Notes: generated by a model from the sequence alone, not told the origin. A stretch of DNA of 64,000 nucleotides from Sphingomonadales bacterium (GCA_043741135.1 JAYUAU010000098.1:17368-81367), one strand, 5' to 3'. Positions 13,901 to 50,654 are shown, counted from the stretch's first letter. Numbers and translations: made by a program.

Positions 13901-13981
13901 CGTCTTTGCGAGGAGCGAAGCGACGCAGCAATCCACTCGCGGCAACACCCTATGGATTGCCGCGCTTCGCTCGCAAAGACG
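13901..13981. repeat. 81-bp nested-palindrome intergenic repeat, copy A
   Basis: CGTCTTTGCGAGGAGCGAAGCGACGCAGCAATCCA...TGGATTGCCGCGCTTCGCTCGCAAAGACG. Reverse-complement orientation relative to copies B and D. Confidence 0.85.
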
Positions 13982-14044
13982 AAATGGTTCGATCTAAGCA
14001 TCATCGTTTCCAATAATTGAGAGCGATCAAGAATCAACTGTCCA

Positions 14045-22062: not shown

Positions 22063-22090
22063 CGCCTGATGATTTTAAGTTGATCTACTT

Positions 22091-22171
22091 CGTCTTTGCG
22101 AGCGAAGCGCGGCAATCCATACTATGGTTCCGCGAGTGGATTGCCGCGTCGCTGCGCTCCTCGCAAAGACG
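22091..22171. repeat. 81-bp nested-palindrome intergenic repeat, copy B
   Basis: CGTCTTTGCGAGCGAAGCGCGGCAATCCATACTATGGTTCCGCGAGTGGATTGCCGCGTCGCTGCGCTCCTCGCAAAGACG, between convergent genes. Confidence 0.85.
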
Positions 22172-22184
22172 ATTCAGCGACATG

Positions 22185-25868: not shown

Positions 25869-26000
25869 CGTCTTTGCGAGGAGTCCTTCGACTGGCTGGC
25901 AAGCCAGCCGCTCTGGACAGGCTGGGGCATATGCCCCAGCGACGCGGCAATCCACTCGCGGCACCATTGGATGGATTGCCGCGCTTCGCTCGCAAAGACG
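25869..26000. repeat. nested-palindrome intergenic repeat, copy C, carrying an internal insertion
   Basis: Same termini as copy A (CGTCTTTGCGAGGAG ... GGATTGCCGCGCTTCGCTCGCAAAGACG), but 132 bp long. The extra segment holds its own palindromes (CTGGCTGGCAAGCCAGCC, GGGGCATATGCCCC). Confidence 0.8.
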
Positions 26001-26034
26001 AATGGTGCAGATTTTTTGCACGATGCTCTAGGCG

Positions 26035-41647: not shown

Positions 41648-41681
41648 CGCGCCGGAACAACCGTGCTAGACTTGCTTCATT

Positions 41682-41762
41682 CGTCTTTGCGAGCGAAGCG
41701 CGGCAATCCAGACAGTGTTGCCGCGAGTGGATTGCCGCGTCGCCGTGCTCCTCGCAAAGACG
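41682..41762. repeat. 81-bp nested-palindrome intergenic repeat, copy D
   Basis: CGTCTTTGCGAGCGAAGCGCGGCAATCCAGACAGTGTTGCCGCGAGTGGATTGCCGCGTCGCCGTGCTCCTCGCAAAGACG. Confidence 0.85.
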
Positions 41763-42515: not shown

Positions 42516-43919
42516 ATGGAATATGTCAGCACTAGGGGGCGCGTTGCGGCGCTTGATTTCGAAGGCACAACGCTTGCGGGGCTTGCCAGTGATGGGGGGC
42601 TCTATGTGCCCGCGCTTTGGCCCACGCTGTCAGCGGCTGAAATCGAAAGCCTGCGCGGCCTGACATATTCACAAACCGCCGCGCGGATCATGCGCCCCTT
42701 TGTCGAAGGTTCGCTGACGACCGAGGAACTCCAATCGCTTTGTGATGAGGCGTATAGCAGCTTTGCGCACGCTGCGGTCACGCCGCTCACGCAACTCGAT
42801 CATCAGCACTGGTTGCTTGAGCTGTTCCACGGGCCAACGCTCGCGTTTAAGGATGTCGCACTTCAGCTTGTCGGTTTGCTCTTTGAAAAGTTCCTTGGCG
42901 GCCGCGATACGCATCTCACGGTGATCGGGGCAACATCGGGCGATACGGGCTCAGCTGCAATTGATGCGCTTGCGGGGCGTGAGAAGGTTGACGTGTTCAT
43001 GCTCCATCCGCTGGGCCGCGTCTCAGACGTCCAGCGGCGTCAGATGACGACGGTGCTTGCCCCCAATGTGCATAACATCGCGATTGAGGGCAGCTTTGAT
43101 GATGCCCAAGCGATTGTGAAAGCGATGTTTGCTGATCCTGATATGTCGAGCCGCTTCACGCTCTCAGCGGTGAATTCGATTAACTGGGCGCGGCTGATGG
43201 CGCAGATCGTCTATTATTTTTATGCAGGTGTCAGGCTAGGCGCGCCTGACCGAAAAATCGCATTTTCAGTTCCCACGGGTAATTTCGGGGATGTCTTTGC
43301 GGGCTATGTTGCCGCACAAATGGGGTTACCGATAGAACGGTTGATCGTCGCGACCAATGTCAACGATATCCTCCACCGCGCGATGACCAGCGGCGATTAT
43401 AGCCAAGGCAGCGTCACCCAAACCGCAACGCCTTCGATGGATATCCAAGTCAGTTCAAACTTTGAGAGGCTGCTCTTTGACCTATCGGGCAAGGATGGGG
43501 CTGCGATTGCGAGCATGATGGCGGGATTTGAAACGACCAAGGCGATGACAATCCCAGCGGACATGCTGAGCAGGGCAAAGCCGCTTTTTTCTAGCGCGCG
43601 GATCGATGGCGACGGGATGGCGCTCGCGATGCGCTGGGCGAGCGAAAAGGCTGGCCAAGTGATAGATCCGCACACCGCGATTGGCTTGGCCGCAGCACGC
43701 GCGGCAGACCTTCCTGCCGATGTTCCAATTGTCACGCTCGCAACCGCACATCCCGCAAAATTCCGTGATGCGGTTGAACGCGCTATTGGCAGCCGTCCGG
43801 TGCTGCCACAGCGCCTCAGCGGCCTTATGGATAGGCAAGAGCGCTTTGACACGCTCCCCGCGACATTAGAGGCGGTTAGCGCCTATGTCGCAACACGCGC
43901 GGTGCCAAAAGCGATATGA
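42516..43919 (+). CDS. thrC: threonine synthase
   Basis: 467 aa. YVSTRG, LELFHGPTLAFKDVALQ (PLP-Lys), ATSGDTGSAA. Confidence 0.9.
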   Translation: MEYVSTRGRVAALDFEGTTLAGLASDGGLYVPALWPTLSAAEIESLRGLTYSQTAARIMRPFVEGSLTTEELQSLCDEAYSSFAHAAVTPLTQLDHQHWLLELFHGPTLAFKDVALQLVGLLFEKFLGGRDTHLTVIGATSGDTGSAAIDALAGREKVDVFMLHPLGRVSDVQRRQMTTVLAPNVHNIAIEGSFDDAQAIVKAMFADPDMSSRFTLSAVNSINWARLMAQIVYYFYAGVRLGAPDRKIAFSVPTGNFGDVFAGYVAAQMGLPIERLIVATNVNDILHRAMTSGDYSQGSVTQTATPSMDIQVSSNFERLLFDLSGKDGAAIASMMAGFETTKAMTIPADMLSRAKPLFSSARIDGDGMALAMRWASEKAGQVIDPHTAIGLAAARAADLPADVPIVTLATAHPAKFRDAVERAIGSRPVLPQRLSGLMDRQERFDTLPATLEAVSAYVATRAVPKAI

Positions 43920-44818
43920 GCCTCATCACGCTGATTGGCGAACCGTGGGACGATTACGGCCTGATCGATTGCGGACACGGGCGCAAGCTGGAGCGCTACG
44001 GCAAATATCGCTTCATCCGCCCCGAGGCACAGGCGCTCTGGGCACCCGCATCAGACGATTGGCAAGCCGACGGCGAATTCATTCCCGGATCAGACGAAGA
44101 CGGCGGCGGCCGGTGGGAGTTTAGCAGAGATGTGCCGCGTGACGGCTGGCCGCTTGACTGGGAAGGTGTGACGTTTCAAGCGCAAACTACCCCCTTCCGC
44201 CATCTTGGCTTTTTTCCCGATATGGCGCCTGTCTGGACGTGGATGGGCAGCAAGCTTGGCGGGCGCGACAATCCGAGCGCGATGAACTTGTTCGGCTATA
44301 CTGGCGTTGGTAGCCTTGCGCTTAGCGAGGCGGGGGCCACGGTCACGCATGTTGATGCCTCGAAAAAATCGGTCGAGGCGGCAAAACTCAACGCCGCGCT
44401 TTCAGGAATGAACGATCGCCCGATCCGCTGGATGATCGACGATGCGGCTAAATTCGCCGCGCGCGAGGTGAGGCGCGGCAAGCGGTATGACGGCATCATC
44501 CTTGATCCGCCAAAGTTTGGGCGCGGGCCAGATGGCGAAGTGTGGCGGCTTGAGGAACACCTGCCACCGCTGATCGCGGATTGTCGCAAATTGCTTGATG
44601 GCGATTCAGCATTTCTGTTTTTGACGGTCTATGCTGTCCGCATGTCAGCGCTCGCTATTGGTGAATTGGTGAGGCAACACTTTGCTGATCTGGGCGGCAA
44701 CATCGAATGCGGCGAACTCGGCGTGCGCGAAGAAGCACGCGGGCTTATCCTCCCCACCGCAATTTTTGCGCGCTGGTCACGGCACCGCGACCATTACCCG
44801 AAAATAGGTGTCGGTTAG
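43916..44818 (+). CDS. class I SAM-dependent (rRNA large-subunit RlmI/RlmK-like) methyltransferase
   Basis: NLFGYTGVGSLALSEAGATVTHVDASKKSVE, YDGIILDPPKFGRG. ATGA overlap with thrC. Confidence 0.75.
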   Translation: MSLITLIGEPWDDYGLIDCGHGRKLERYGKYRFIRPEAQALWAPASDDWQADGEFIPGSDEDGGGRWEFSRDVPRDGWPLDWEGVTFQAQTTPFRHLGFFPDMAPVWTWMGSKLGGRDNPSAMNLFGYTGVGSLALSEAGATVTHVDASKKSVEAAKLNAALSGMNDRPIRWMIDDAAKFAAREVRRGKRYDGIILDPPKFGRGPDGEVWRLEEHLPPLIADCRKLLDGDSAFLFLTVYAVRMSALAIGELVRQHFADLGGNIECGELGVREEARGLILPTAIFARWSRHRDHYPKIGVG

Positions 44819-44937
44819 GCGGTAATTGACAGTGTTCCAGCTGTAGCCTTTTGAATTCTTAACTGCCGCTACGCCTGCGGCAAAGCGTTGATCTGCGTGA
44901 TACCAAAGCTCAATGAGTCCAACCTATCTCCGTTTAT

Positions 44938-45035
44938 CCTGTCTCCCGGCGGGCCGATGTCGAAGGACTGCCCTTTCTTATTCTAAACCGTTGGAAAAAG
45001 GACAACCCTTCGACATCGACCCGTCGGGAGACAGG
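44938..45035. repeat. long inverted repeat / hairpin (29-bp arms, 40-nt spacer)
   Basis: Left arm CCTGTCTCCCGGCGGGCCGATGTCGAAGG (44938-44966). Right arm CCTTCGACATCGACCCGTCGGGAGACAGG (45007-45035). 27 of 29 positions are complementary, and imperfect pairing continues outward and into the spacer. Confidence 0.8.
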
Positions 45036-45165
45036 GATGCGGTTGGGAGAAATAGGTCAAGCTTTATGCAGGCTGGTATTAGTTGTGGACGACAGCTTTT
45101 TCTCGCCAAAGATCGCCGCACGGAGATGATGTGAAACGTCCCCAAATCCCACGCGACGTCCACAC

Positions 45166-45195
45166 GATCCCGAAATCACGCGATTTTCATTGAAG
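45166..45195 (+). repeat. direct repeat, left copy (core GCGATTTTCATTGAA)
   Basis: GATCCCGAAATCACGCGATTTTCATTGAAG. About 24/30 identity to 47681-47712, same orientation. Confidence 0.7.
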
Positions 45196-45306
45196 CAGGT
45201 GGCCTGAGCAAGCAGTGAAACGGTTTGAAATGATAATGAGCGAGATATTGCGCCCGTTGCCGCAAGCTCGTAAGGCGACGTCAATCGAAGCAATAGATTA
45301 TATGCG

Positions 45307-46224
45307 TTGGAGGGACATTTGTCTCAATTGGTTGATATTGATGTATTTAAGCGCCAAATGATTGGCGCCGCGCGGTATAAACTCTCCGACGCAAATGTTT
45401 TTTTGTCGCCCGGCGGGTTCCATTGCATCGATTATCTCGATCCCCCTGTCGTAGCGCCAAGACCATTGCGAGATGTCCCTCTATCCGAAAGCGAAATCAC
45501 ATATATTGAACGCAGTCTGCAATCCAATGACGAACGATTCTCCAGCCAGCTTGCCACTGTCAAAAAATATGTCGCGCTTTCCAAGGCTCGCTTGTTAGAT
45601 ATTGGCTGCGGCGGCGGCCTTTTCCTGACCAAAGCCAGAGAATGTGGAGCGGATCCCGTTGGTGTTGAGCTTTCCGAAACGAGGGCCAAATATGCGACGT
45701 CGCGGCATGCGCTAGAGATTGTCCAATATCCTGTCGAACATGAGGTGTGGGCCAACCGTTCTGGCGAGTTTGATGCTGTGAGCCTGTGGGACGTGATCGA
45801 ACATGTGAACTATCCTCAGCAAACACTTCACCACGCTATTCGATTGCTCAAGCCGGGCGGTTATCTGTTCATCGACACGCCGTGCCGTGATGCATTTTAC
45901 CACCGCATGGGTGCGCTCACATACCGCCTCACCGCTGGTCGATTTCCGACGTTCCTCAACACGCTTTATTCGCAGCAGCCTTTTGGACATAAGCAAATAT
46001 TTTCAACCGATGAAATGCGAGCGCTGTTTGAAGATGCTAAGCTTGAGGTCGTCGACGTGGGTAAATTCCACGAGCTCTCCTTCCCAATCCCCTTCTATCT
46101 GAAACGGATGCTCAAATCAGATTGGCTTGTGCGTATGGCGGTGCCTCTTGTGTCAATTGCGCTTTTCATATTTCCCGTCAGAAACAAAATGCTGGTGGTT
46201 GGGCGTAAACCGCTGAGTGGTTGA
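45307..46224 (+). CDS. class I SAM-dependent methyltransferase (polysaccharide-cluster type)
   Basis: LLDIGCGGGLFL (motif I), FDAVSLWDVIEHV, LLKPGGYLFIDTP. Start uncertain (TTG 45307/45319/45328 or ATG 45358). 3' end overlaps the convergent ORF by 72 nt. Confidence 0.7.
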   Translation: MEGHLSQLVDIDVFKRQMIGAARYKLSDANVFLSPGGFHCIDYLDPPVVAPRPLRDVPLSESEITYIERSLQSNDERFSSQLATVKKYVALSKARLLDIGCGGGLFLTKARECGADPVGVELSETRAKYATSRHALEIVQYPVEHEVWANRSGEFDAVSLWDVIEHVNYPQQTLHHAIRLLKPGGYLFIDTPCRDAFYHRMGALTYRLTAGRFPTFLNTLYSQQPFGHKQIFSTDEMRALFEDAKLEVVDVGKFHELSFPIPFYLKRMLKSDWLVRMAVPLVSIALFIFPVRNKMLVVGRKPLSG

Positions 46225-47490
46225 TCGAACGTCTGACATATTTGGCCTATTCAAACGGATGTTAAGCAGAAAGAGCGGGCCGAAAATGAACAGTCCATCG
46301 GAGAGAACCTGCGAAAAATAGCCGCGTGTTGGCATATACATGCCGAAAAAAATGGGCACGAGCGCGCATGTTGCGATGCGTGTTTCATAACTCAATGCCA
46401 TCGCCCAATCGATCACTTTCGTCGCAAATTTGAAGTAGAGAAAAGCGCCGATTGGTAAGCCGATCCACCCAAATTGCAGGAGCAGCTCGACATGCTGTGG
46501 CGCTGCAACGCCAGCCGCCCTGGCATCTGCTGTAAATCCCTGAAAATAATAATAGAGATAATCGGGCGTAGGCTTATCGGCCCATAAGAACGACGGAATA
46601 AATCGTGCGATTGCAACAGTCCATGGCTGAAGCAGCGCCGGATCGGGCAGTGGATTTGCCGCGACATAATTGAACGAAAATAGCGGGCCGACTTCGCCAC
46701 CAAACGAACGGAAAATATCACCAATCGACATGCCATCAAGCCGACCAACATCAAGGCCCCGCCCATAGGTTCGCGTTAAAACGATAAAATTGTTCAAAAA
46801 TAGACCGCCGGTAATCGCGAGTAATGCGCGTGCAAGGCTTATTTTATAACCGCGAATCAGCAAGAAGCTGACAGCTAATCCGAATATCGCCAGCACAATT
46901 CTGAACCGAAAACCCATCATGAACAAAGCAAATAGGCACACGGCGAAGAACGCCATCCCCCGCACATCAAATTTTCTATATATCGCATAGACAATTGAAA
47001 GCGATATCAAGGGGTGAAAAAGTAGATTGATAAAGGCGAGGCTGCCATCATAATTCTGTTCTGACGTATAAGCAGAATCCGCAAGTATATTGAGCCTCCC
47101 TAACCGCCATTGCGCAATAATTGCGACGAACACTATCGCCATGATGATGAAAAAGACTGTAAAATTGGTTCTTGGCTCATGAGCGATTGCGATAGCGGGG
47201 TCTTTCGCTAGAGTTTTAGTCGACGTAGCACAAGCGACAAGAGCACCACCCACGTAGAGCGCAACCGCAACATGTGGCCATTGCAGTGTCTCAAGATACA
47301 TCCCGAGAAACTCCTGCCCTTTTCCCTCAAAAGAAAGTGACGGCATCAGATAATAATAGATGATCGACGTTATCACGATCATCGGAGGCAAGGCCAAAGG
47401 TCCAAGTGGGGTTTTATTTTTGAAATAGAGCAAGCATCCCATCAGCAACAATAAGGTGACAATGCCGGCGGTGCTAAAAACAATCTCCAT
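46153..47490 (-). CDS. Wzy-like oligosaccharide repeat-unit polymerase / O-antigen-ligase-like polytopic membrane protein
   Basis: 445 aa, about 10-12 predicted TM helices, with one larger loop (TRTYGRGLDVGRLDGMSIGDIFRSFGG...). Architecture is typical of Wzy-type polymerases. Visibly AT-richer than its surroundings. No database confirmation. Confidence 0.6.
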   Translation of the reverse strand: MEIVFSTAGIVTLLLLMGCLLYFKNKTPLGPLALPPMIVITSIIYYYLMPSLSFEGKGQEFLGMYLETLQWPHVAVALYVGGALVACATSTKTLAKDPAIAIAHEPRTNFTVFFIIMAIVFVAIIAQWRLGRLNILADSAYTSEQNYDGSLAFINLLFHPLISLSIVYAIYRKFDVRGMAFFAVCLFALFMMGFRFRIVLAIFGLAVSFLLIRGYKISLARALLAITGGLFLNNFIVLTRTYGRGLDVGRLDGMSIGDIFRSFGGEVGPLFSFNYVAANPLPDPALLQPWTVAIARFIPSFLWADKPTPDYLYYYFQGFTADARAAGVAAPQHVELLLQFGWIGLPIGAFLYFKFATKVIDWAMALSYETRIATCALVPIFFGMYMPTRGYFSQVLSDGLFIFGPLFLLNIRLNRPNMSDVRSTTQRFTPNHQHFVSDGKYEKRN

Positions 47491-47680
47491 GCAACCCTCA
47501 TCTCATTGCTTATGCTAGGATGAGCCTAGCGCGTTGCTTTTTGCGCTGATGAACAATCATCACGCGTGGGTGCTGCCATAGTCTCCTGCCGTGCGCCGCG
47601 CCACCATAAACATCGCGCGGCGGGTGACGCGTTTCGCCGCGGTGCAGGGCGGACATCGAGCGATCCGAAAGATATCCGCA

Positions 47681-47712
47681 CAATCCCAAAGCCATGCGAT
47701 TTTCATTGAAAG
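47681..47712 (+). repeat. direct repeat, right copy (core GCGATTTTCATTGAA)
   Basis: CAATCCCAAAGCCATGCGATTTTCATTGAAAG. Followed by a G6/C6 hairpin (47712-47738). Confidence 0.7.
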
Positions 47713-47957
47713 GGGGGTGTCGCCGTATCACTCCCCCCTTGATGAAACCGGATGCTGTTCAGCCATCCACGCCTTAAATTCATCGAGCGGCCATGGTTCG
47801 GCATCGGTGCGTTTGGCATAGCTAAAGGCCATGGCATCGGCGTGCTTGTTCGACATGCCTTGACCGATACAGTGATGATAGAGGTCGATCCGGCGCAGCG
47901 GGATGCCAACGCAGCCACGGCTTCGTTCAGATATTCCTGAACAAAGTTGCGCTTCAC
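47703..47957 (-). pseudogene. small ORF translationally coupled to the DNA methyltransferase, apparently frameshifted
   Basis: GTG at 47957 overlaps the MTase stop (GTGA). That frame reads [17 protein letters not shown] and then degenerates. A second frame continues with protein-like GIPLRRIDLYHHCIGQGMSNKHADAMAFSYAKRTDAEPWPLDEFKAWMAEQHP and stops at 47728. Confidence 0.3.
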
Positions 47958-49627
47958 AGATCAAGGCCCTTTTGCGCGCCGGGTTGATGCGATGCCCGAA
48001 CGTCGACGCGCGCAGCGCGCCGGTTGACCGAGGCAAGCGGGGGCAACTTTGCACCAGACCCGTGGAAAAAATCGGCTGGCGTCAGAATTTGCAAGCGGGG
48101 GAAGCGACCAAATTCATTCTCGTGCATTCCCGCAGCCGCTGCCTCTGCAACCATGGGTCGCGTTGGTTCATACGCGGAGAGGAAAAGGCCAAAGTCATAG
48201 TTTTCGCGCTCCAGCACGCCGCGCAAATCGCGCAGCATGGCAACGCCAATATTCTTGCCAGCCTTGACTGAGATAACACCAGTCGTTGTTTCCCGTGAAT
48301 TTTGATAAGGATAGAAATGGCCGTCAATGCCACGATCAGCGCCTTTGCGACCGCCATCAAGCGGATAGCCGCCGACTTTGAGGCAAAACCAATTCTGAAA
48401 CTCATGTGGCTTCTCGCCAGCCAAGCGCAGCGCCGAATCCTTGTCTTTGGGACTGCCGATGGTCTCGAACGGCAAATCATCGCCATAGCCCTCACGCATC
48501 CGTTTTTCGATCAGGCCGATTGCGAGGTGGGTTACGTCAATCCCGACCCAGCTTCGGCCTAGTTTTTGCGCGGCATCAACGGCGGTGCCGCACCCGCAAA
48601 AGGGATCAAGCACCACATCGCCGGGGTTCGACGAAGCGGCGATGATTCGTTCGAGCAGCGCGCGGGGTTTTTGCGTGGGGTAGCCGAGGCGTTCTTGGGC
48701 TTGCGATGAGATTGGCCCTATGTCCGTAATCATATCCTGAACAGGTGCGCCGCGATCATTTTCGAGGTAGCGCTTAAATTGAGGCACTTTCCCTTTCGGG
48801 GGCCAATAAATGAGCCCAAGCCTATCAAGTCGATCAAGCTTATCTTGTGGCGAGAGTGTTTCAAAATCGCCGTTAATACCCGCCCTACGAATAGCACCAG
48901 TTGGTATTGCCCAATGACGACCAGATGTTGTCGGATCATAGTCGCGCCATGCTTTTCCAGAATCACCCTTACGAACACCCGCGCCGGTTAAATCACCAAT
49001 GCGATAGCGGCCATTTTCATCTTCAAACCTGTAAAAACGGTCGAGATATTTTTCATCATATGACTCGAATACCTCGTTCCAAACCGACGAGTCGTTTTTG
49101 ACATAGTAGAAAATTGTGTCGTGAACTGGCCCCCAGCGTTTGGCGCTATTATGGCTTGAAGTGCGTTTCCAAATGATCTCACTACGATAATGTTCCGGCC
49201 CAAACACCGCATCGAGCACCAGTTTCAAATAATGGCTCGCCGTCGGGTCGCAGTGTAAATAGAGCGAACCTGTCGGCTTCAGCACCCTGTGCAATTCCAC
49301 CAACCGCACTGCCATCATCGCGAGATAGGCCATCATCGCATTTTCGCCGATCGCGGTTTTCATTGCCTGCATCAATACGTGGAGCTTGTGATTGCCGCTC
49401 TGTGTGATGTCCATCAGCGCGCTTGATGCCGTTGGCCCCCACGCCCATGTATCGTCAAACGCCTCAATGCTCGCGTCGGCGCCTGCCCCTGCGGGCGATT
49501 TGAACAATATGTTGTAACTTGCGTTGCTGTTAAACGGCGGATCAAGATAGATCAGGTCAACCGACTCGTCGGCCAAATGCTCGCGCATCACATCAAGGTT
49601 ATCGCCGTAATAGAGCTTGTTGGTCAT
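47954..49627 (-). CDS. beta-class N6-adenine/N4-cytosine DNA methyltransferase fused to a C-terminal Mrr-like PD-(D/E)xK domain
   Basis: Motif IV near the N-terminus ([12 protein letters not shown]) and motif I late ([28 protein letters not shown]) give the beta permutation. C-terminal about 140 aa: [11 protein letters not shown]...[24 protein letters not shown] resembles the Mrr catalytic-domain pattern. Confidence 0.85.
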
Positions 49628-49700
49628 ACCGTTCTTTTGACGAATAAGCCGCGTTCGTGCAAGGCACTCGCGCTGTGCTCGCGGGAGACGAAGTGAAAAT

Positions 49701-50119
49701 CGCCAGAGGGTCTATAAGCCGGGTTTTGTCCTCACCTTGCGGCGATGTGCGACCATTCCTCTAGGGCGGGGATTACTCCCAGCCTCAAGCAATCAACCCG
49801 GACGACGGGGAGGAGGATCCCATTTGGGCACCCAAAAAAGTATTACTTTTTTGGGACCCTCTGCCGTCCCTATTCGATCTTGCTCCCGGTGGGGTTTACC
49901 GTGCCGCTTCTGTTGCCAGAAGCGCGGTGCGCTCTTACCGCACCGTTTCGACCTTACCGGCCCGAAAGCGCGGCGGTTTATTTTCTGTGGCACTATCCCT
50001 CAGGCGTTTGATTGCTCTCTGGCCTGGCCGGGCGTTACCCGGCACCGTTCCTCGCTGGAGCCCGGACTTTCCTCCCCCACGCAGATACCCACATAGCGGC
50101 GGTCGCCCAACCCTCTGGC
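49701..50119 (-). ncRNA. rnpB: RNase P RNA, bacterial class A
   Basis: Minus strand reads GGGAGGAAAGTCCGGGCTCC, GTGCCACAGAAAA, GGTGCGGTAAGAGCGCACC, CACGGTAAACCCCACCGGGAGCAAG, ACAAAACCCGGCTTATAG. P1 pairs GCCAGAGGGT (5') with ACCCTCTGGC (3'). Confidence 0.9.
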
Positions 50120-50168: not shown

Positions 50169-50654
50169 GTGATGACGGATAAAGGCTTATCAATTGTCGA
50201 GTTTGCTGACGATTTGGCTCAACAATTCTACGATATCAACGCGCAGTGGATCGAAAGCATGTTCGTGCTTGAAGACCATGATGCGCACGTGCTTTCGCAT
50301 CCGCGCGGAGTGATTATCGAACCCGGCGGCGTCATCCTGTTCGTTGCCACGCCGGCACTCGGCATCGTTGGTACCTGCGCTTTAATGAAAAGCGGCGAGG
50401 ATGAATATGAGCTCACCAAAATGGGTGTGCTTGAAAGTGCGCGCGGGCTGAAAGCAGGTGAGTTTCTGCTTGAAGCGATCATTACCCGCGCTCGCGATAT
50501 GGGGGTGAAACAGCTCTATTTGCTCACCAGCAGCAAATGTGAGGCAGCAATCCATCTTTATGAAAAGCTAGGCTTTGTGCACAGCAAGGCGATCATGGAT
50601 AAATATGGTGCGCGATATCAGCGCTGCAATGTGGCGATGGACTATTGCTTTTGA
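50169..50654 (+). CDS. GNAT family N-acetyltransferase
   Basis: 161 aa. MGVLESARGLKAGEFLLEAII is acetyl-CoA motif A, followed by AIHLYEKLGF. Confidence 0.8.
   Translation: MMTDKGLSIVEFADDLAQQFYDINAQWIESMFVLEDHDAHVLSHPRGVIIEPGGVILFVATPALGIVGTCALMKSGEDEYELTKMGVLESARGLKAGEFLLEAIITRARDMGVKQLYLLTSSKCEAAIHLYEKLGFVHSKAIMDKYGARYQRCNVAMDYCF

Follow-up and report, generated by a model that had tools for sequence, protein, structure and literature searches.

The interval between positions 44,819 and 49,700 of a 64,000-nucleotide stretch of DNA from a Sphingomonadales bacterium (GCA_043741135.1 JAYUAU010000098.1:17368-81367; the whole stretch is hereafter called the window) raises the question of whether its genes arrived together as one accessory island or came to lie side by side independently. 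The interval adjoins rnpB, the gene for RNase P RNA, and holds four open reading frames (ORFs) of substance: a class I S-adenosylmethionine (SAM)-dependent methyltransferase (SAM-MT), a divergent Wzy-type membrane protein, a mini-ORF and a solitary DNA methyltransferase (MTase). It is interpreted here, with a probability of about 0.7, as a rearrangement junction which carries two independent accessory units plus scars, rather than as one island. Unit A (47.73-49.63 kb) would be a small unit of the MTase and the mini-ORF which lodges between housekeeping genes at differing sites in sphingomonads, and its role would most likely be orphan adenine methylation of the chromosome, with a restriction-endonuclease-fold domain binding the DNA. 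Unit B (45.15-47.71 kb) would be a 2.5-kb pair of the SAM-MT and Wzy-like genes that has come loose from a conserved multi-methyltransferase/GT4 polysaccharide cluster. It lies between two direct copies of a decayed 3' end of dnaE2 (error-prone polymerase), and both of its genes are kept by selection; its products would most likely polymerise and O-methylate a polysaccharide of the cell surface, the repeat unit of which is presumably made and flipped by the products of genes elsewhere in the genome. The two units would not cooperate, and the junction would join the conserved blocks which end in thrC-rlmI on the left and consist of GNAT-rnpB on the right.

Separate occurrence of the two units

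The MTase was found without the SAM-MT/Wzy-like pair in the loci L091, L094, L081 and L083 (Sphingomonas abietis), on a rhizobial plasmid and in a Streptomyces phage, and the pair was found without the MTase in L092, L084 and L088. L091, a metagenome contig, shares the order GNAT-rnpB-MTase-mini-ORF with the window by blastn; its MTase is followed by a coupled 73-aa ORF, an element resembling repetitive extragenic palindromic (REP) sequences, a DUF2946 gene and a TonB receptor gene, and the contig holds neither a Wzy-like nor a SAM-MT gene. The MTase and a coupled 71-aa ORF lie between lplA-like and PALP genes near the dcw cluster in L094, the MTase lies alone between an H+-pyrophosphatase gene and infA in L081, and its homologue stands in yet another context in L083. 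Across the MTase loci in relatives, the homology begins at the start codon. Full-length relatives with 45-48% identity are solitary on the Mesorhizobium plasmid pMLa and in Streptomyces phages, and an actinobacterial plasmid copy adjoins a separate restriction endonuclease gene. L092, a 3-kb contig with 86% nucleotide identity, carries the same convergent pair as the window with other flanks.

A 444-aa Polysacc_synt-like membrane protein is encoded at 12225-13559 of L083, 0.5 kb from the MTase homologue. It was considered as a recurring link between the units and rejected because it is not similar to the Wzy-like protein, and its position is apparently coincidental.

Composition was compared with that of 56 window ORFs (mean GC 0.556, standard deviation 0.029). 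The lowest GC of the window is that of the Wzy-like gene (0.475, z about -2.8), and the SAM-MT gene has a GC of 0.507. The MTase gene is native-like (GC 0.539, z of -0.26 for GC at third codon positions, z of +0.69 for codon usage), so that deviant composition is limited, among the three intact genes, to the SAM-MT/Wzy-like pair. The evidence supports the presence of accessory, variable DNA in the interval, and does so best for 45.15-47.71 kb, which is absent in L091 and deviant in GC; the MTase part is shared with L091 and native in composition.

An earlier reading of this DNA, made before any database search (the sequence-only reading), had taken the whole 4.9 kb for one acquired island at the 3' end of rnpB, with the four ORFs as one novel defence or surface-modification module. 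All four genes do lie between conserved blocks and beside a stable-RNA gene, part of the stretch is low in GC, and repeats and decayed fragments are present. The two halves are, however, found apart in every other context examined, the composition of the MTase is native, L091 shares the MTase-rnpB adjacency (80% nucleotide identity) without the pair, neither a repeat derived from rnpB nor an integrase was found, and PADLOC returned nothing past generic MTase models. A single-island origin is accordingly regarded as very improbable and is already largely refuted. What holds of the proposed accessory island is that position-variable genes lie between conserved blocks and that the pair is foreign and absent from L091; what falls is the single island. 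The module of four ORFs dissolves into an MTase and a pair which occur separately in other contexts, the four-gene set having been found together in none of them. The supposed insertion at the rnpB end is left unsupported by bounding repeats that come from dnaE2 and by the MTase-rnpB adjacency shared with L091, and the defence module by PADLOC, which gave generic MTase models only.

Synteny of the flanking genes

The left flank is formed by thrC (42516-43919; ORF listing and hidden Markov model (HMM) scans) and an rlmI-like class I SAM methyltransferase gene (43916-44818, plus strand; Pfam PF10672 3.5e-8, with weak RlmI/RlmK NCBIfam matches), and the right flank by rnpB (49699-50118, minus strand; bacterial RNase P RNA class A, Rfam RF00010, 294.6 bits), beyond which lies a GNAT gene (50169-50654). 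These flanks had been named correctly in the sequence-only reading, as ORF, HMM and Rfam scans confirmed. The four ORFs were likewise located where that reading had placed them, and the distance of about 70 bp given there for the MTase was measured as 71 nt from the rnpB 3' end to the MTase start at 49627.

Species-representative genomes were scanned by means of thrC, which yielded sphingomonad loci with 66-85% amino acid identity and the common order coxIII-SURF1-thrC-rlmI, a conserved block which the rlmI-like gene closes in the window as well. The region of the rlmI-like gene is colinear with L001-L013 and L080, and 33.4-44.8 kb of the window is colinear with the closest locus, L001, until homology stops at about 44781-44791. 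Nothing in the window to the right of about 44.79 kb matches the relatives found via thrC. ccmB-ccmA follow the rlmI-like gene in L001 and in seven Parasphingopyxis-type loci, the window has no ccmBA, and rnpB was present in 0 of the 80 thrC loci. Because relatives have ccmBA after the rlmI-like gene, the position at 44.8 kb is a synteny breakpoint and not a simple insertion edge; a clean indel at 44.8-49.7 kb, which the sequence-only reading had proposed to look for, is thus not what the relatives display.

Purifying selection and divergence

The ratio of nonsynonymous to synonymous substitution rates (dN/dS) is 0.04-0.10 across all three intact genes. The SAM-MT (0.10) and the Wzy-like gene (0.089), both compared with L092 at synonymous divergences (dS) of 0.54-0.64, are both under purifying selection, and the values for the MTase are 0.04 against L091 and 0.09 against L081. 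Alternatively, the SAM-MT/Wzy-like pair could be what remains of a degraded polysaccharide locus, without function and passively carried: a cluster has ten or more genes, of which only two are present here, homologues of its GT4, AsnB, Wzx and epimerase genes are lacking from the window, and the surrounding DNA is rich in relics. Both ORFs are intact, however, their convergent overlapping arrangement is kept in L092, and dN/dS is 0.09-0.10 at the above dS, so that a mere leftover is considered improbable.

The MTase shares about 95% amino acid and about 80% nucleotide identity with that of L091 (dS 0.99), and the adjoining GNAT gene shares 61% amino acid identity (dS 2.9) and rnpB 72% nucleotide identity with the same contig. 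An exchange of the MTase allele by recombination, more recent than the divergence of the flanks, is hinted at because the dS of the MTase is far below that of GNAT.

Assignment of the MTase and its C-terminal domain

The MTase gene (47954-49627, minus strand) encodes 557 aa and was assigned as a solitary beta-class N6/N4 DNA methyltransferase (PF01555 with PF04471). PF01555 was matched with 8e-40 and 137.6 bits against a gathering cut-off of 26.7, and the motif order is that of the beta class, DPPF (aa 29-32) standing before FCGCGT (aa 343-348), with both motifs invariant in 18 homologues. Relatives that are otherwise almost identical differ in the central region (about aa 190-300), which, as expected of target recognition, would set the specificity. 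Scores were far below the equivalog cut-offs for CcrM (NF050803, 81.3 against 830) and for the YhdJ type (NF008572, 104 against 292). The window MTase and its identical cluster representative (P0001) have no exact record, and close homologues were used for comparison. The family is very large, with at least 8000 homologues scored; the best 120 matches listed are all at least 60% identical and near full length, and the homologues with a source name, among the matches listed, are called site-specific DNA-methyltransferase (adenine-specific).

A domain of the restriction-endonuclease fold makes up the C-terminal 170 aa. PF04471 (Mrr_cat) was matched marginally at aa 419-498 (5e-5, 23.8 against 21 bits), and the corresponding domain of some relatives also matches PF22722, a model named 'inactive restriction endonuclease'. 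The structural model of the domain has a mean predicted local distance difference test (pLDDT) score of 80.5, with values above 85 for most of residues 11-150, and the best Foldseek matches were EcoO109I (probability 0.97) and FokI (0.96), both weak at E>0.001. An invariant signature, KGxDxGxDG...SVK, was seen, in which D431, D435, S453 and K455 are conserved in all 18 aligned sequences. The canonical D...(E/Q)xK triad is not present in any of these 18, S453-V-K455 standing in place of (E/Q)xK, and the domain most likely binds DNA rather than cleaves it.

No separate restriction endonuclease gene lies beside the MTase in the window, where its neighbours are rnpB and the mini-ORF, and the same holds for L081, L091 and L094. 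PADLOC on the window returned generic MTase_II models only and no complete defence system. The window was also found to hold neither a canonical restriction-modification (R-M) operon nor a canonical polysaccharide locus, in agreement with the sequence-only reading. None of the solved structures spans the whole MTase architecture, and a literature search for the combination of MTase and Mrr_cat returned only a defence-system census listing both Pfam identifiers and no characterised member, so that the architecture belongs to a very large and apparently uncharacterised family.

The sequence features would also fit a single-chain R-M enzyme with an active C-terminal PD-(D/E)xK-type nuclease and the mini-ORF as controller or immunity factor, the whole being a compact selfish defence unit. 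The domain passes the Mrr_cat gathering score and is strongly conserved, including the four invariant residues, its predicted fold best matches EcoO109I and FokI, and the unit moves among loci. Weighed against this are the replacement of (E/Q)xK by SVK in 18/18 aligned sequences, the matches of some family members to the inactive-endonuclease model PF22722, the full-length copies which are solitary in Streptomyces phages, the plasmid copy which adjoins a separate restriction endonuclease gene, and the mini-ORF, which L081 lacks and which is frameshifted in the window while the MTase is strongly selected. Such an enzyme is rather unlikely here. Its extension to the family as a whole, namely that the beta-class MTase plus D...SxK proteins (at least 8000) are uncharacterised single-chain R-M or selfish enzymes of reversed domain order, with a coupled mini-ORF as regulator, a recombinase-free mode of insertion between housekeeping genes and the MTase-tail duplication of L091 and L094 (see below) as the insertion scar, is held to be a long shot. 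An orphan methyltransferase with a DNA-binding C-terminal domain is preferred.

The coupled mini-ORF

The mini-ORF (about 47728-47957, minus strand; alignment and translations) is translationally coupled to the MTase by a GTGA overlap. In the window it has lost 1 nt and is frameshifted in comparison with the intact ORFs of 71-73 aa in L091 and L094, and an independent contig (L093) is identical to the window at the deletion site. The family is confined to 4 clusters in 5.8 billion proteins and had no match in Pfam or PHROG; its members directly follow the MTase in both contexts examined (L091 and L094), and the MTase of L081 is without one. The mini-ORF is a clade-specific add-on of the MTase.

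Homology of the window to the MTase unit of L091 and L094 ends at about 47764-47752, at a G6...C6 stem-loop (47712-47738, minus strand; read from the sequence) which overlaps the mini-ORF stop and looks like a terminator of the MTase/mini-ORF transcript. In L092, too, a stem-loop of this kind stands after the repeat.

Right after the mini-ORF, the MTase 3' end occurs once more in decayed form, at 9124-9172 of L091 (encoding ARVEVRKSHQPGAQGGLDI and a stop) and at about 11905-12025 of L094 (encoding PKLPPLVSVNRKAARVETRVTHQPSAQGGLDL and a stop). Because this copy follows, the mini-ORF is bracketed in both loci by direct repeats of the MTase tail of 72-92 nt, which look like a scar of insertion or recombination. 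No relic of the MTase 3' end was found at 44.7-47.8 kb of the window, where the unit is cut directly after the mini-ORF stop.

Assignment of the SAM-MT and Wzy-like genes

The SAM-MT gene (45307-46224, plus strand) encodes a class I SAM-dependent methyltransferase (Methyltransf_23, Pfam 3.7e-27) and the Wzy-like gene (46153-47490, minus strand) a divergent Wzy-type membrane protein of 445 aa with a sub-threshold match to TIGR04370. The two ORFs converge, and their 3' ends share 72 nt in the window (46153-46224) and 66 nt in L092 (1593-1658); where the pair is detached this overlap is conserved, and the pair of L088 is instead co-directional.

The Wzy-like protein had no Pfam match, and TIGR04370 (oligosaccharide repeat unit polymerase) was matched at 1.3e-5 and 24.4 bits, under the cut-off of 40 bits. 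Weak TIGR04370 matches were obtained for 6 of the 24 core family members found by word-indexed search, and the more distant profile relatives P0201, P0205 and P0220 pass the cut-off. When 1.84 billion representatives were searched exhaustively with a profile, 46 Wzy-like proteins scored E<=1e-30, and 310 reached E<=1e-10. The protein is multi-spanning with conserved Arg, Glu and Gln residues, and its AlphaFold 2 model (pLDDT 83) weakly matches FtsW (8bh1_A, probability 0.93, template-modelling score 0.33-0.40) and WaaL (7tpg_B, 0.84); no Foldseek match was obtained at E<=0.001.

The Wzy-like homologues of L084, L085, L088 and L098, four independent contexts, sit between GT4 glycosyltransferase genes. 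Their clusters include four to six Methyltransf_23 genes, in most cases accompanied by a Wzx-type flippase, epimerases or AsnB. An orthologous SAM-MT is present in 3 of the 5 polysaccharide-cluster contexts of Wzy-like genes, and the SAM-MT of the window is 57% identical to cluster methyltransferases in L088 (9040-9948, directly upstream of the Wzy-like gene) and L084 (3559-4494), so that it is probably a polysaccharide O-methyltransferase. The core clade of Wzy-like proteins is very small and tied to heavily methylated polysaccharide clusters. No such cluster surrounds the gene in the window or in L092, where the SAM-MT is the sole companion, and the GT4, AsnB, Wzx and epimerase homologues of the clusters in L084, L085 and L088 are lacking from the window.

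An insertion sequence (helix-turn-helix plus DDE_3) lies at 3264-4329 of L098, between the gene for a 218-aa methyltransferase and the first GT4 gene, at the position which holds the SAM-MT orthologue in L084. Its insertion may explain the absence of the orthologue from L098.

Origin of the direct repeats

Direct repeats of 36 nt with 83% identity lie at 45159-45194 and 47675-47710, on either side of the pair, and the window holds two occurrences of the core pattern where 0 are expected. Both copies were identified as the last codons of a decayed dnaE2 (ending in IPKSRDFH and a stop). Copy 1 (45149-45193, plus strand; tblastn) encodes PRDVHTIPKSRDFH and a stop, and is 71% identical over 14 aa to the intact DnaE2 C-terminus of L096 (PRNARIIPKSRDFH and a stop). 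Copy 2, together with a weaker upstream relic, lies at 47590-47709 (plus strand; tblastn), of which 47650-47706 encodes RTSSDPKDIRTIPKPCDFH and a stop, and shares 73% nucleotide identity over 86 nt with the dnaE2 relic on the left of the L092 cassette. This left copy of L092 extends upstream into a relic of the dnaE2 OB-fold (E 4e-17) with an internal deletion, and the right-hand copies in the window and in L092 carry an identical shortened dnaE2 relic. Because both copies carry the identical internal deletion, the dnaE2 end had already decayed when it was duplicated to flank the cassette; either an att-like integration or a tandem duplication with later deletion could have done this.

When metagenomes were scanned with the repeat core, three contigs matched; the match in L096 is formed by the last ten codons of a C-terminal fragment of DnaE2. 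At 1-300 of L095, a match to the dnaE2-end core is directly followed by an ORF resembling an addiction-module killer, so that dnaE2 ends adjoin variable DNA elsewhere too.

If the first of these two routes was taken, the SAM-MT/Wzy-like cassette would be the surviving cargo of an integrative element which targets the dnaE2 3' end, and the copies would be attL and attR. In both the window and L092 the cargo lies between direct repeats made of a gene 3' end, the composition of the cargo is foreign, and the left flanks differ, with the relic of the dnaE2 body in L092 and junction DNA in the window. An integrase is absent, however, the duplicated relic was already decayed and tandem duplication followed by deletion fits equally well, an empty site was not found, and the core motif marks ordinary dnaE2 ends without cargo in the metagenome. 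The integrative element is thus judged possible and on balance unlikely, and the cassette is further treated as a detached pair between two copies of a pseudogene end.

Remaining features of the junction

The DNA at 44819-45148 is gene-free junction DNA with one long hairpin (inverted-repeat search). The hairpin is near-perfect (44938-45035, 98 nt), with arms of 39 nt and 87% complementarity (44938-44976 and 44997-45035), a 29-nt core with 2 mismatches, and a fold energy of -73 kcal/mol (z = -8.8). It is present in a single copy within the window, Rfam gives no family for it, and a distant blastn search of the left gap against plasmids gave no match. The non-coding gaps measure 488 bp (44819-45306) and 463 bp (47491-47953), of which the second includes about 230 bp of mini-ORF and about 237 bp of truly non-coding DNA. 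An Rfam scan of 44.7-49.8 kb at E<=1 gave rnpB only, and therefore no riboswitch or small RNA family accounts for the gaps; promoter and terminator counts were not clearly over those of shuffled sequences. No integrase or transposase was found in 44.8-49.7 kb or among ten Pfam-scanned ORFs between 50.6 and 62.4 kb, and the repeat search found no rnpB-derived repeat at the far boundary.

Most of these features had been described in the sequence-only reading and were reproduced: its hairpin with 29-bp arms is the core within the 39-nt arms, its direct repeats of about 30 bp are the 36-nt repeats, the AT-richer character of the Wzy-like ORF was borne out by GC computation, and its search by eye for an integrase or transposase had the same outcome as ours. 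Its two non-coding gaps of 0.46-0.49 kb are right in size, and the second is in part the mini-ORF.

A dispersed palindromic intergenic element which is REP-like (cattgcgagc-aaagcgaagcaatcc) occurs at 41679-41711, 25947-26003, 22089-22178 and 13953-13986 of the window, and the same element stands after the mini-ORF unit at 9175-9261 of L091. REP-like repeats of this kind are typical of alphaproteobacteria.

Strength and meaning of the interpretation

Several points tell against the interpretation of the interval as a junction with two independent units of the above functions. The contigs of the closest relatives are 3-13 kb long, and both units might be linked over a longer range in L092. An empty site with a single dnaE2 relic was not found. 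The modified base of the MTase, most likely N6-adenine because the catalytic motif is DPPF, and the recognised motif are both deduced from sequence. Real endonucleases of the Cfr10I/NgoMIV type have an SxK active site with a relocated acidic residue, and because such enzymes exist the C-terminal domain might still act as a nuclease. The Wzy identity, which is the most likely one, is derived from sub-threshold and transitive HMM matches, context and a weak fold match.

Both gene families are of known kinds, and the interval is a fairly ordinary variable spot. It illustrates that what looks by its architecture like an island beside a stable-RNA gene can be a mosaic of unrelated units where synteny breaks, and that att-like repeats can prove to be pseudogene ends, here those of dnaE2. 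Two leads arise: the small Wzy-like clade which persists as a selected two-gene cassette in one sphingomonad lineage, and the very large, apparently uncharacterised architecture of MTase plus restriction-endonuclease fold. Neither overturns present understanding.

Comparison with known systems

Like islands at the 3' ends of tRNA, tmRNA and other genes, the window has repeats of a gene 3' end which bracket cargo of foreign composition. The differences are that these repeats come from dnaE2 and not from rnpB, that there is no integrase, that the repeated unit was already a pseudogene and that the bracketed DNA measures only 2.5 kb.

The MTase shares with the beta-class amino-DNA methyltransferases (PF01555; CcrM 6pbd, M.MboIIA 1g60, M.RsrI 1eg2 and DpnA 5hfj) the order of motif IV before motif I, and the SAM-binding and catalytic cores align; it is about 200-300 aa longer than these solved enzymes, owing to a variable insert of about 110 aa and the 170-aa C-terminal domain. 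This domain matches Mrr_cat (PF04471) and the NACHT-associated inactive restriction endonuclease (PF22722) in fold and in the signature G-x-D-x-G-I-D-G...x-K, and differs from Mrr_cat proteins in that it is fused behind a methyltransferase, carries SVK throughout the family and has no N-terminal modification-sensing domain. Single-chain Type IIC/IIG enzymes (MmeI, BcgI) have a gamma-class methyltransferase and an N-terminal nuclease. These enzymes and the window MTase alike pair a methyltransferase with a PD-(D/E)xK-fold domain in one polypeptide; unlike them, the window MTase is of the beta class with the endonuclease-fold domain at the C-terminus.

With Wzy polymerases (TIGR04370), the Wzy-like protein shares a multi-spanning topology, the conserved Arg, Glu and Gln residues, a low GC content of its gene and glycosyltransferase neighbours in the homologous clusters. 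Low GC of wzx and wzy genes has been reported (PMC3715488). The protein of the window differs from the TIGR04370 members in scoring under the cut-off and in belonging to a very small core clade. Orphan wzy genes outside the main cluster are represented by rfc of Salmonella and wzy-beta of phage D3, and the Wzy-like gene of the window likewise lies away from any cluster. Because the host family presumably has no classical lipopolysaccharide, an exo- or capsular polysaccharide is the more likely substrate of the Wzy-like protein.

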